The position numbers and the translations under genes are program-made. A stretch of 64,000 nt of DNA, from contig JAWOCD010000005.1 in assembly GCA_046483985.1 (NCBI GenBank), positions 52,655 to 116,654 of the forward strand. Direction: 5' to 3'. Positions within the stretch are counted from its first letter, which is position 1. Every line of letters begins with the position of its first letter. The notes below the pieces were generated by a model. That model was not told the DNA's origin. It made no database searches and was given only the letters and a program-made list of their open reading frames with translations. Origin of the DNA: Promethearchaeia archaeon. Lineage in GTDB: Archaea > Asgardarchaeota > Lokiarchaeia > Sigyniarchaeales > SOKP01. Of the stretch, positions 10,758-33,519 are shown piece by piece.

Positions 10758-12977
10758 TTAGACGAACAGTGACTTTTCTTCATCGGAACGATGAGAAGAG
10801 ACTCGACGTTGTTTCAATTTATCTTGATAATCTTCGTACCATTGAACAATATCATCGTTAATACTGGCGCTAACGAATTCTCTTGCTCGCTCAAAATGAT
10901 TCATATTTACCGTTCGTGCTCTAATATTATCTCGTAATGCGATCATCGCTGCTTCCCGGCAGAATGTTTCAATATCTGCTCCTGAAAATCCTTCGGTCAT
11001 TTTTATTACTTTATCTACCTCTACATCTGTGGAGAGTGGCATTGGTTCAGCAAATATTTCAAAAATCTCTTCTCTTTCTTCCTTATTGGGAGCAGGCACC
11101 AATAATATTCGATCAATCCGACCGGGACGAATCAGAGCTGGATCAAGGATATCTGGCCGGTTAGTTGCGGCGATAACTACAATATCCTTATTGACTTCTA
11201 ATCCATCTAATTCTGTGAGAAATTGAGATAATACTTTTTCGGTCACACCCGAGTCTGAAGTATGCCTTCCACGGCTTGGTGCAAGAGAGTCAAATTCGTC
11301 AAAGAAAATAATACATGGTGCTGCCATTTTTGCTTTTCTAAATACTTCCCGAATTGCCTTTTCACTTTCACCTACCCATTTCGAGAGGAGCTCTGGTCCT
11401 TTGATTGAGATGAAATTAGCTTTACTTTCAGTTGCAACCGCGCGTGCTAAGAGTGTCTTGCCGCACCCTGGTGGACCATATAGAAGGATCCCTTTAGGTG
11501 GGGTAATACCCATGCGAGAAAATACTTTCGTATTTGAAATAGGCCAATTTACCGATTCAATTAATTTTTGTTTTAAATCGTCTAGTCCTCCTACTTCATC
11601 CCACGAGACATTCGGAATTTCGACAAATACCTCCCGAATTCCTGAGGGGAGAACTTCCTTTAAAGCTTCCTGAAAGTCTTCCCTCGAAACTTGAATTTGT
11701 TCCAATAATTCTGGATCTATTATCTCGGATTCCAAATTAATTTCCGGAAGATACCTACGTAATGCTGACATCGCCGCTTCACGAGATACTGCCGAAATAT
11801 CTGCCCCTACAAAACCATGTGTTATTTTTGCATACTCTTTAAGGGAGATTTCCTTATCCAAGGGCATATTTCTGGTATGGATCTGAAAAATCTCTAATCT
11901 CCCTTTTTCGTCTGGTACTTTTATTTCAATCTCCCGATCAAATCTCCCAGGGCGGCGTAAAGCAGGATCTAAACTATTAGGACGGTTTGTGGCCCCGATG
12001 ACTATAACTCTTCCTCTACTATGTAATCCGTCCATTAACGCTAATAATTGTGCGACCACGCGACGTTCCACTTCGCCAGTTACATTTTCCCTTTTTGGAG
12101 CGATTGCATCAATCTCATCAATAAAAATTATCGAAGGGCTCTTTTCCTCGGCCTCGACAAAGATATTTCTTAATTTCTTTTCAGATTCTCCATAAAATTT
12201 GCTCATAACTTCTGGGCCATTAATTGAAATAAAATGAGCTTCGCTTTCATTGGCTACAGCTTTTGCTAACAAGGTCTTTCCACATCCTGGGGGCCCTCTT
12301 AAAAGTACACCTTTCGGTGGGTCGATTCCAAGTCTCTTAAATAATGAAGGATGACGGAGAGGTAATTCAACCATTTCCCGAACACGCTGTATTTCTTTAT
12401 CTAGTCCACCAACATCTTCATAGGTGATATAAGTACCCTCATCGATACCTTCCGAGATTCTTTCACTGATATGAAGGTTAGTCTCACTTGTTATAATACA
12501 GACGCCTTTTGGTCTTAAATTCGTTACTTTAAAGGTTAGCTCTCTACTAATCCCAATTGAAATAATAATATAATCGTCCATAGTTATGGGTAATTTGTTT
12601 AATCTTCTCTTGACAAATGATTCAAATTTAGAATTAGTTTTGATAGTAATATTAGAAGCCGAAAGTACTACTGTATCAGCTTCCATTTTTTTAACCTTTT
12701 TTACTTCCACGGTATCATCTATACTAGTCCCAGTATTTTTTCTTAATCGAGAATCAATGCGTGCTATTTGAAGACCGTTATCTTGTGGGTAACTTGGCCA
12801 TGCAATTCCAGCGCTTTTTTTTTTGCCTTCTATTGCAATTATGTCGCCTGTTTCAATATTTAATTTTTCCATTGTTTCTTGATCTATTCGGATGATATTC
12901 CGTCCAACGTCACGCTTTTTCGCTTTTTGAATTCTTAAGGTAACGCTTCTATTGCTATCATCATTATCTGGCGTCAT
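10758..12977 (-). CDS. cdc48: CDC48/VCP (p97) AAA+ ATPase
   Basis: N-domain plus two AAA modules (GPPGCGKT x2, IDEID/FDEFD, RPGRFDR/RPGRIDR). Confidence 0.97.
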
Positions 12978-30911: not shown

Positions 30912-31307
30912 ATGTCTCCGATAATATCACTTCAAGTCTCCGAAGATCTTCACGAGCGGTTCGAAAAGGTAAGGACTTTAGTGGGGTTTGATTCTAAAAG
31001 TGAGGCGTTACGTGATGCCATCGTAAATTTTATTAAGATCCACGAAGAATTTGAAAATATCGAGGGATATAAGATAATGAATATTAACCTTGTGTATCCC
31101 TTTAAAGAAATTGTGATAGATAGAGTTTCTGAAATCTATACGGAATTTAATAATGTTATCCGAAATGTCTCAGATTGGCGAATCGCTGAAAAAAAAATTG
31201 AGATTGTCCTTGCCGTGGGCGAATTCGGATTAATTCGCGATCTTTATGATAAACTGGCAAAAATTAAACATGTGGTCGTGTCAATTCACGAGATCATTCT
31301 GGATTAG
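30912..31307 (+). CDS. Ribbon-helix-helix regulator, NikR-like
   Basis: IISLQV...SKSEALRDAI RHH domain plus an ACT-like C-domain. Confidence 0.8.
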   Translation: MSPIISLQVSEDLHERFEKVRTLVGFDSKSEALRDAIVNFIKIHEEFENIEGYKIMNINLVYPFKEIVIDRVSEIYTEFNNVIRNVSDWRIAEKKIEIVLAVGEFGLIRDLYDKLAKIKHVVVSIHEIILD

Positions 31308-31325: not shown

Positions 31326-32732
31326 TTAATAAAAGTGAAGAGATAGATCCACCTCTTCGGACGGAAACTGAGTTAATCTACTTGAACTTATTACATCTGG
31401 TTCTGCTTCCAAATAAGAGGCCAGATTCTCGAAATTAATCCCCCCCGATACCTCAATTAAGACTTTATTACGCAAACCGTGCTCATTAAGTAGATTAATG
31501 GCATTTTTTACCTCTTCTGGATCCATATTATCCAGCATAATTATATCTGCTCCAATTTTTGCAGCTGTTAATAAATTCTCTACTTTCTCAATTTCAATTT
31601 CGATTTTTTTTGTAAAACTCGCTTTTTCTTTAACAGCTCTTAAAAGCACTTCCACATCACCATTATAATAACGTAAATGTGTATCTTTTAAAAGAATCAT
31701 ATCATCTAAGGAAAACCGATGGGGATCACCACCCCCGATTTCAATTGCTGCTTTTTCGAAGATGCGAAGTCCAGGGAGAGTTTTTCGTGTTCCTGCAATT
31801 TTTGTTTTTTTCTTCAATTTTTGAGTAAGATTTACATATTTTCTCGTAGTTGACGAGATAGCACTCATATGCGTAAGAAGATTTAATCCAACACGTTCTA
31901 TTAAAAGAATATCATGAGCATTTCCGGTTAAGTCAACGATATGATCTCCTTTTTCTATAAAATCACCGTCCCGGTTTTGAAGATCTGATTCTACATTACA
32001 CATATCGCATAGAACATTAAAAAATGTTAAACCAGAGATATAACCTTTACTTTTTGCGATAATTTTTGCTTTCACCCTTTCCTCTTCCGGAATAAATGCG
32101 GAGCTTACATCCTTAAATTGGCAATCTTCTTTCAAATATTCTCTAAGTTTTTCTTTAATCAAGATGATATTATAGTTTTTATCAACAGATTCCTTTACTT
32201 CTTTTGGGAGATTTTCAATTATATGGAGTTTGGTTTCTGGAGTAATTAAACAAACACCCTTCGGTTCTAGGTTCGTCACTTTAAATTTCTGTTTTCTACC
32301 TTTCCCCCTCGAAATAATGAGATTATCATCCAAGGTTATTGGAGTATTCTGGGAATTCTTTTTAATGAGGGATTTAACTTGGGAATTACGTTTTATATCG
32401 AAATTTAAAGCAGTAAGACTAACAGATTTGGCATCTTTTGCTTTAGCCTTTCTAATTCTAACAATGTCTCCTTTTTTAGTTTTCGTATTTTTTCTAAGAC
32501 GGGAATCAATCCGAGCAATTTGTAGCCCCTTATCGTCTGGATAATTTGGCCAAACTATTCCCGCACTTTTCTTTTTCCCTTTAATTACAACGATGTCTCC
32601 TGTTTCCAGATTTAAGTTTTTCATTATTTTTTCATCTATTCGAATGATATTTCGACCCTCATCTCGATCTTTAGCGCTTTGAACTTCTAAGATATAAATT
32701 TTTTCATTATGGTTATTATTGTTTTTCTTCAT
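31326..32732 (-). CDS. nadC: Quinolinate phosphoribosyltransferase with an N-terminal CDC48 N-domain
   Basis: C-terminal TRKTLPGLR, HRFSLDD..LLKDTH, DIIMLDN and EVSGGI motifs; residues ~12-172 align with the CDC48 N-domain in this window. Confidence 0.92.
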   Translation of the reverse strand: MKKNNNNHNEKIYILEVQSAKDRDEGRNIIRIDEKIMKNLNLETGDIVVIKGKKKSAGIVWPNYPDDKGLQIARIDSRLRKNTKTKKGDIVRIRKAKAKDAKSVSLTALNFDIKRNSQVKSLIKKNSQNTPITLDDNLIISRGKGRKQKFKVTNLEPKGVCLITPETKLHIIENLPKEVKESVDKNYNIILIKEKLREYLKEDCQFKDVSSAFIPEEERVKAKIIAKSKGYISGLTFFNVLCDMCNVESDLQNRDGDFIEKGDHIVDLTGNAHDILLIERVGLNLLTHMSAISSTTRKYVNLTQKLKKKTKIAGTRKTLPGLRIFEKAAIEIGGGDPHRFSLDDMILLKDTHLRYYNGDVEVLLRAVKEKASFTKKIEIEIEKVENLLTAAKIGADIIMLDNMDPEEVKNAINLLNEHGLRNKVLIEVSGGINFENLASYLEAEPDVISSSRLTQFPSEEVDLSLHFY

Positions 32733-32874: not shown

Positions 32875-33519
32875 ATGGTTGTTCTTAAGGATTTATTTAT
32901 TGATGTTAACGGCATTCAATTAGAAGCCGAATATCTTCATTCCACCACTGATAATGAATTTGCAGTTATTATTTGTCATCCTCATCCGCAATACGGGGGA
33001 AGCATGCACAACAATGTGGTTTCAGCCGTTTTTTCTCGGTTAAAGATGGAAAATATCAATTGTCTTCGTTTTAATTTTAGGGGTGTCGGAAACTCTTCTG
33101 GATCTCCTTCTGACGGAGTAGGAGAATTGGAGGATGTAAAAGCATGTGTCGAGTACTTAGTTGGGGAAAAACATTATGAGAAAATATTAATATGCGGCTA
33201 CTCTTATGGCGCTGCGATTGGTTGTTCTGCAGTTAATTATAGTAAACATATTGTTGGTTTTGTAGCAATCTCTTTTCCATGGGATTTTATGGATGAAAAT
33301 TTCAAGAAATTATCCCAAACTGGGAAACCGAAATTTTTTATTCAAGGAGATGAAGACTCTATAGCTAAATATAATAGATTTCAAGAACATTATGACGATT
33401 ATCAAGAACCGAAGGAATATACTATAATCAAGGGTGCAAACCACTTTTACAGAAGTTATGAACACCAAGTTGCTGAGGAAGTACACAAATTTATTAAAAA
33501 AAATTATTCCCTTGATTAA
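32875..33519 (+). CDS. Alpha/beta hydrolase
   Basis: HPHPQYGGSM.N, RFNFRGVG.S, GYSYG, QGDED and GANHFY motifs; likely start is ATG 32875 (MVVLKD), not 32719. Confidence 0.9.
   Translation: MVVLKDLFIDVNGIQLEAEYLHSTTDNEFAVIICHPHPQYGGSMHNNVVSAVFSRLKMENINCLRFNFRGVGNSSGSPSDGVGELEDVKACVEYLVGEKHYEKILICGYSYGAAIGCSAVNYSKHIVGFVAISFPWDFMDENFKKLSQTGKPKFFIQGDEDSIAKYNRFQEHYDDYQEPKEYTIIKGANHFYRSYEHQVAEEVHKFIKKNYSLD

Follow-up and report, generated by a model that had tools for sequence, protein, structure and literature searches.

How did a domain of the unfoldase Cdc48 come to stand in front of NadC, an enzyme of NAD synthesis, and does it have a task there? The question is raised by a single gene in a 64,000-nucleotide (nt) stretch of DNA, hereafter the window, from a Promethearchaeia archaeon (assembly GCA_046483985.1, contig JAWOCD010000005.1, positions 52,655 to 116,654). 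A first-pass annotation had read the start of this gene as a copy of the N-domain of the cdc48 gene located 20 kb away, joined in frame to an intact nadC, and both parts of this reading hold. The gene is one open reading frame (ORF) in which Pfam places CDC48_N, CDC48_2, QRPTase_N (residues 211-290, 3.5e-17) and QRPTase_C (residues 292-465, 1e-48) in this order, all four above the gathering cut-offs. In a BLASTP comparison, residues 1-187 of the fusion protein aligned with the first 186 residues of the Cdc48 encoded in the window with 101 identities in 187 positions (54%), one gap and an E-value of 6e-60, and all the peptide pairs that the annotation had set side by side were located in both sequences. 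The N part also aligned to the VAT-N structure 1cz4 of the PDB (7e-14). An AAA domain, and with it D1 or D2, was not found in the fusion by Pfam, and the CDC48 model TIGR01243 scored only 93 bits against a cut-off of 802.65, the match being confined to model positions 4-171. Therefore, the protein is without the ATPase and is not a Cdc48; it carries the Cdc48 head only. Nor does it qualify as a Ufd1-type protein, since Pfam UFD1 had no match in it at E ≤ 0.01. That the two halves are truly fused in a single polypeptide is a point on which we have very little doubt.

The C-terminal part scores as a quinolinate phosphoribosyltransferase (QPRTase) throughout. It matched PF02749 with 62.8 bits (cut-off 27) and PF01729 with 165.7 bits (cut-off 23.1), and the NCBIfam nadC equivalog TIGR00078 gave 282.6 bits on the fusion against a cut-off of 198.4. 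When aligned with the QPRTase of T. maritima (PDB 1o4u, 1e-47), it was found to keep the TRK, GGGDPHR, KD.H, E.E, LDN and SGG motifs, to which we assign the binding of substrate and PRPP after the M. tuberculosis enzyme. In the structural model described below, Foldseek matched this part to QPRTases with TM-scores of 0.86-0.93. The fusion is the only NadC in the genome (4.06 Mb, 97% complete, 128 contigs), in which NadA is present twice and NadB once (578.9 bits, above the cut-off), while aspartate dehydrogenase was not found in it. With a sole NadC and with NadA and NadB present, the de novo NAD pathway thus depends on the fusion. We predict with high confidence that the NadC part is active, and the C-terminal 283 residues would then do the usual work of NadC in a NadB-NadA-NadC pathway that is complete. 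Both genes for NadA (quinolinate synthase) are full-length (G000:C9:49875-50783 and G000:C127:2445-3356), as against the single, fused NadC.

The architecture was then searched for elsewhere, and two more fusions were recovered, P0002 (464 aa) and P0003 (465 aa), with the same four domains and the same junction and about 64% identity to the window protein. P0002 corresponds to MGV9199800.1 and MGV9205560.1 at NCBI, both proteins of metagenome-assembled genomes (MAGs) annotated only as NadC, and was also found in Logan; P0003 is present on three contigs from Logan and ENA. With the window protein, this makes three diverged sequences that have one junction in common, from different sources and at least six contigs. 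The first-pass annotation had reckoned with a junction that might lack support, and its recurrence in independent assemblies speaks otherwise. Beyond these three, no four-domain protein was found by a word-indexed search of 5.8 billion clustered proteins, and an HMMER search of 1.84 billion 50%-identity representatives, among which the fusion forms one cluster, returned no other protein matching both halves. Neither the 40 close relatives examined nor any of 399 further Asgard species genomes, of which 134 belong to the same family, contained a fused nadC. When 185,579 species genomes were scanned with P0002, all the loci returned were unfused nadC, without a single fused one. A search for short proteins with the N part alone returned only P0121, a Cdc48 fragment. 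The nearest NadC and Cdc48 relatives of the window proteins are from Promethearchaeota/Lokiarchaeia MAGs. In the literature, no paper was found that pairs the CDC48 N-terminal domain with a quinolinate phosphoribosyltransferase, and broader searches gave nothing specific. The fusion is a new architecture, made by domain shuffling of known modules, and the combination is described in none of the literature searched.

The three fused NadCs have a further feature in common at their other end. All three terminate in Tyr (..FY; the last codon is at 31329-31331 in the window), while Asp (..LRFD) is the usual last residue of the 117 closest unfused NadCs, none of which has Tyr there. The C-terminal Tyr is a shared derived change of the fusions; it does not make an HbYX motif, since Tyr is the final residue.

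With regard to the origin of the N-domain, of the three Cdc48 paralogues of the genome, the one encoded in the window resembles the fused N-domain far more than the others do (55% identity against 33-34%). The start of its gene lies 19,755 nt from that of the fusion on the same strand, and many relatives likewise have cdc48 and nadC on one contig, ~10-20 kb apart. In a maximum-likelihood tree of N-domains, the three fused copies formed one clade (support 91/91), nested in a 100/100 clade with the window Cdc48, P0272 and P0121. The N-domains of the latter two are 92-95% identical to that of the window Cdc48, and both proteins were taken as Cdc48s of the lineage. In addition, the fused copies and the Cdc48s of the lineage have GLQIARIDS at a site where all other genera have GLGIVRIDS. 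The nested clade and the lineage-specific residues point to one duplication, inside the lineage, from the window cdc48. Judged from these sequences, the fusion arose once, by local partial duplication of cdc48, and is restricted to this lineage. The lineage-specific domain shuffle that had been postulated at first pass agrees well with the single clade and with the lack of fused nadC among the other Asgard species genomes.

The site of the insertion can be read from the genes on either side (Table 1). Among 80 related loci, the alpha/beta-hydrolase gene adjoins nadC in 63, with ~30-60 nt between the two starts, and the NikR-fold gene adjoins it in 74. At the fusion locus, 142 nt and a 555-nt N-domain segment lie between the hydrolase and the NadC start position. 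Since the fusion has the neighbours of unfused nadC on both sides, the point of insertion of the N-domain segment was precisely the 5' end of nadC. At the junction, homology to Cdc48 extends to about codon 182, where the N-D1 linker starts, and is followed by two codons and then by K-N-Y-N. Unfused relatives start with MSYN or MNYN, and three of three fusions read K-N-Y-N at this place. Lys at the position of the former Met in all of them indicates that the start codon was lost before the fusions diverged. In the window genome, the codon two residues ahead of the ancestral start is GTT and that of the ancestral start itself is AAA. The next Met within the NadC part would, if used as a start, cost ~57 residues of QRPTase_N.

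Table 1. Position, strand and supporting evidence for the fusion gene, its parts, the parent gene and the neighbouring genes in the window
Feature	Coordinates	Strand	Basis
Fusion gene: Cdc48-type N-domain, linker and NadC	31326..32732	(-)	Single ORF, 468 aa + stop; four Pfam domains; NCBIfam nadC equivalog
Nn subdomain (CDC48_N double-psi barrel), residues 15-97	32442..32690	(-)	Pfam PF02359, 1.2e-23; AlphaFold2 pLDDT mostly 82-93
Nc subdomain (CDC48_2), residues 122-171	32220..32369	(-)	Pfam PF02933, 2.1e-6, above cut-off
Junction and flexible linker, residues 174-188	32169..32213	(-)	Leftover of the N-D1 linker of Cdc48 + two added codons + former nadC start; junction common to P0002 and P0003; pLDDT below 50 at residues 175-184
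AAA codon (Lys185) in place of the ancestral nadC ATG	32178..32180	(-)	DNA reading; comparison with unfused relatives
NadC (quinolinate phosphoribosyltransferase) part, residues 186-468	31329..32177	(-)	Pfam; TIGR00078; PDB 1o4u; Foldseek
cdc48, parent gene (739 aa; one N-domain, two AAA domains)	10758..12977	(-)	Pfam; BLASTP; tree clade 100/100
Source of the copy, cdc48 codons 1 to ~182	12432-12977	(-)	Homology ends at the N-D1 linker
Alpha/beta-hydrolase gene, divergent upstream neighbour of nadC, marking the upstream side of the insertion	32875..33519	(+)	Pfam; synteny
131-aa NikR-fold protein (ribbon-helix-helix + ACT-like), convergent downstream neighbour of nadC	30912..31307	(+)	Synteny; NCBIfam below cut-off

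From this layout, the following course of events can be proposed. The ancestor of a narrow lineage of Lokiarchaeia would have duplicated the 5' part of cdc48 (codon 1 to ~182, which is exactly the N-domain up to the N-D1 linker), and the copied piece would have been inserted two codons upstream of the nadC start, between nadC and the divergent hydrolase gene. The ATG of nadC would later have turned into AAA, and the sole quinolinate phosphoribosyltransferase would consequently be translated from a cdc48-derived start. In the relatives, the divergent hydrolase/nadC pair has a very compact shared promoter region, which is split here by the N-domain insertion.

Two other accounts of the similarity to cdc48 and of the DNA upstream of the fusion were considered and set aside. 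A recent copy or gene conversion would leave the synonymous sites alike, and these are saturated: 47 of the 97 identical residues are encoded by identical codons, with 43.7 expected. In one short block, residues 27-45, the third-position identity to cdc48 is 0.8, which may be chance. Co-duplication of the cdc48 promoter was examined by comparing the 110 nt upstream of the fusion with those upstream of cdc48. The local alignment score of 28 was not significant, as it was equalled in 282 of 2000 dinucleotide shuffles and in 17% of AT-rich control windows. The spacing between the hydrolase and nadC-fusion starts is nevertheless 142 nt as against about 30-60 nt in relatives, and extra upstream DNA probably came along with the N-domain copy.

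Whether the copied domain is maintained was assessed from its substitutions. Between the copy and cdc48 of the same genome, the identities at the three codon positions are 0.73/0.78/0.46, and the ratio of nonsynonymous to synonymous substitution rates (dN/dS) is 0.07-0.25, depending on the method. Since the amino-acid change is almost all on the fused branch, the ratio of that branch itself would be roughly doubled, ~0.15-0.4. Residues 52-82 have 80-93% amino-acid identity to cdc48 at third positions that are randomised (0.40-0.47). In simulations, neutral drift to the observed divergence produced 6.5-8.4 stop codons, and the probability of no stop was ≤ 0.002, while only one 1-aa indel is found within the fold across the three orthologues. 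An alignment of 21 Cdc48 N-domains has 87 near-invariant columns; all three fusions retain 34 of these, and a further 32 are retained by two fusions (66 by at least two), and in such columns charged residues are retained as often as hydrophobic ones. The low dN/dS, the saturated synonymous sites, the missing stops and the rare indels together indicate that the domain is translated and under purifying selection, which on these grounds we consider very probable. A neutrally evolving N-domain, which the first-pass annotation had named as fatal to its own proposal, is at odds with a dN/dS of 0.07-0.25 and with a frame that is open where neutrality would give 6-8 stops.

On the other hand, the selection is far from strict. 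The terminal branches of the fused copies measure 1.0-1.4 substitutions per site against 0.02-0.04 for the Cdc48 N-domains of the lineage, with 0.23 on the stem, so that in each lineage the rate of the fused copy is about 30 times that of the parent N-domain. Among the three fusions, the N part is 47-53% identical and the NadC part 73-77%; within the N part, Nc is less conserved (44-49%) than Nn. The net charge varies as well. It is +18 for the window copy and +7 for the N-domain of its own Cdc48, and the orthologous fusions have -2 (P0002) and +10, in a family in which Cdc48 N-domains are themselves basic (+3 to +10). The earlier statement that the copy has become more basic is thus right for the window copy and wrong as a trend; charges of +18, -2 and +10 make the basic shift private to the window genome. 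The SIGISRE loop, which is invariant in Cdc48 and aligns with the VRGGMR loop of yeast Cdc48, varies freely in the fusions. The latter loop is the p97 R155/R159 region at the N-D1 interface, and a loss of constraint in a D1-facing loop is as expected once D1 is gone. As far as substitution patterns tell, the constraint on the copied domain is strongly relaxed, and continues to be so, with the fold and a core block kept and most of the surface free.

To see how the two halves may be arranged, a single chain was modelled with AlphaFold2 (AF2) from a 25-row alignment of the three fusions, N-domains and NadCs. The mean predicted local distance difference test score (pLDDT) was 85.7, with values below 50 only at residues 1-9 and 175-184, so both halves are modelled with confidence. 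The model has a folded N-domain at residues 13-173, a flexible linker and the first NadC helix at residues 189-203. The predicted template modelling score (pTM) of 0.66 fits two domains that lack a fixed mutual orientation. The N-domain is accordingly modelled as a folded, flexibly tethered accessory module: the N-terminal 173 residues would stay a folded Cdc48-type N-domain on a disordered linker of ~10-15 residues, and each subunit of the NadC oligomer would present one N-domain.

As to what such a module may do, our tentative preference is for a loosely constrained accessory module that would serve NadC by way of stability, assembly or generic polypeptide binding, the last of which is known for VAT-N. 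We do not regard the N-domain as faithfully mimicking the head by which Cdc48 binds its cofactors: evolution ~30-fold faster than that of the parent and the unconstrained D1-facing loop make a conserved Cdc48-type partner surface less likely. Several observations weigh against an accessory role. A TTG at Leu191 (32160-32162) is a possible start of a near-full NadC, and P0003 has a Met two residues ahead of the junction; selection on the N part indicates, however, that the long form is made. The substitutions common to the fusions are few (A60V, V123I, and IS to LP in the linker), and hence nothing points to a functional site newly fixed in them. Sustained fast evolution and the small number of fusion-specific conserved changes would suit a functionless passenger equally, and the many charged Cdc48-N positions retained could mean that a Cdc48-type ligand site has been preserved.

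The passenger is the alternative that survives best. Here, the N-domain would be a frozen accident without a function of its own, kept for supplying the start codon, perhaps also the promoter, of the sole nadC. We regard this as possible though doubtful, and think the same of the corollary that the enzyme would suffer if the domain were partly lost or misfolded, so that selection would keep frame and fold only. The loss of the nadC ATG and branches ~30 times those of the parent, with the acceleration ongoing in three lineages and no burst on the stem, are in line with it, as are the unconserved charge and the near absence of conserved residues specific to the fusions. In addition, the architecture arose once and occurs nowhere else in the 1.84 billion representatives, so it has not been repeatedly selected. 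However, prokaryotes tend to delete useless DNA, and here ~170 codons have been kept with a single 1-aa indel in lineages saturated at their synonymous sites. A dN/dS well under 1, the 80-93% identity of residues 52-82 to Cdc48 in spite of that saturation, and the retention of invariant charged positions as well as of core hydrophobic ones are also more than a mere passenger would lead one to expect.

The accessory module that we prefer differs in turn from a decoy or recruiter, the idea of the first-pass annotation, in which the N-domains on a NadC dimer or hexamer would bind Cdc48 adaptors or substrates, thereby linking NAD synthesis with the network of Cdc48 and the proteasome. Both lobes, Nn and Nc, are kept and confidently folded in the AF2 model, 70% of the invariant charged Cdc48-N positions are retained, a flexible linker would permit multivalent display, and QPRTases are oligomeric in the PDB, for instance human QPRT (2jbm) with 12 chains. 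Yet a shared partner should fix the surface, and the N-domain is 92-95% conserved in the Cdc48s of the lineage as against 47-53% in the fused copies, with a charge that ranges from +18 to -2. No partner gene adjoins the fusion, and no paper linking the two domains was found in the literature search. We consider the decoy or recruiter unlikely, and the decoy, chaperone and proteostasis-link roles of the first-pass annotation are all speculative. Far less probable still is the idea, put forward in the first-pass annotation, that a basic N-domain lets NadC moonlight on DNA or RNA. The window copy has a net charge of +18 and an isoelectric point of 10.1, and DNA binders of the AbrB type are remote relatives of double-psi barrels, but Cdc48 N-domains already carry +3 to +10, P0002 has -2, and the basic patches that gave rise to the idea are private to the window copy and not common to its orthologues. 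With a genome in 128 contigs, one might suspect a chimera of the assembly or the decaying remnant of a pseudogene in front of a normal nadC. Either is hardly credible in view of the junction common to the three diverged fusions, which come from different sources and at least six contigs, a frame open where neutrality predicts 6-8 stop codons, a nadC start without its ATG, and a 116 kb contig with conserved synteny on both sides.

The other neighbour of nadC deserves a remark of its own. In the 74 of the 80 related Lokiarchaeial loci in which the NikR-fold gene adjoins nadC, the two are convergent and the NikR-fold gene is located ~10-20 nt downstream of nadC. The protein scores far below the NCBIfam cut-offs for NikR (56 bits against 111), and may act as a conserved regulator, linked to nadC, whose ligand is not nickel.

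Taken as a whole, the locus offers a clean and datable domain capture in the Asgards, the archaeal group closest to eukaryotes. The donor is still present 20 kb away, the breakpoint lies exactly at a domain boundary, the recipient has lost its start codon, and the captured domain has been retained long under selection that is relaxed yet real. The case illustrates that the Cdc48 N-domain can leave its motor and be reused, a type of event that is thought to underlie Ufd1-type adaptors. Should the N-domains on the NadC oligomer recognise Cdc48 adaptors or clients, for which we see a rather low chance, NAD synthesis would be physically tied to the unfoldase-proteasome system, and thereby cofactor metabolism to protein quality control; the gene would then offer a present-day view of the way in which partial duplication of cdc48 gives rise to N-domain proteins without an ATPase, such as Ufd1. 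If they bind no such partner, the gene is a useful natural case of passenger-domain retention. In either case, public annotation labels such proteins plain NadC and overlooks the extra domain.

Compared with known systems, residues 186-468 are a full-length NadC with the fold, the motifs and the genomic neighbours of the QPRTases (TIGR00078; PDB 1o4u and 2jbm), and are 59-66% identical to the unfused 284-aa NadC of related Lokiarchaeia. The difference lies in the additional 185-residue N-terminal Cdc48-type domain and in the loss of the enzyme's own start codon. The other NadC fusions encountered join pathway partners, namely NadB-NadC (P0191) and NadC-aspartate dehydrogenase (P0187). The N part, for its share, is two-lobed like the N-domain of Cdc48/p97/VAT (PDB 1cz4, VAT-N, and 5g4f), of which it is a direct and recent paralogue (54-57% identity, clade support 100/100). 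Unlike Cdc48, p97 and VAT, the fusion is without the AAA D1/D2 rings, evolves ~30 times faster and has an unconstrained D1-facing loop.

CDC48_N and CDC48_2 without an ATPase were also encountered elsewhere in Asgard genomes: in a 289-aa protein with a C-terminal part of ~110 aa that is unknown (L039:940-1806 (+)), in a 456-aa protein whose N-domain is C-terminal, behind a probably membrane-bound part (L040:137-1504 (+)), and in a 268-aa protein (L042:702-1505 (-)). The representative library holds two more ATPase-less N-domain proteins, P0128 (347 aa, tandem N-domains) and P0214 (316 aa). A 226-aa ORF in a closed genome (L038:921-1598 (+), G033) has a strong CDC48_N and a truncated CDC48_2 with no in-frame AAA behind, and may represent either a cdc48 with a frameshift or a short protein of the N-domain type. 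The Cdc48 N-domain thus appears to be a recurrent mobile module in Asgards. The UT3 domain of Ufd1 has the Cdc48 N-domain fold, and in Ufd1, as in the Asgard proteins with CDC48_N and CDC48_2 only, an N-domain is detached from its motor and joined elsewhere, a likeness to the fusion that is architectural only. These proteins are older and diverged and have non-enzymatic partners, whereas the fusion carries a young copy of a housekeeping Cdc48 N-domain on a metabolic enzyme.

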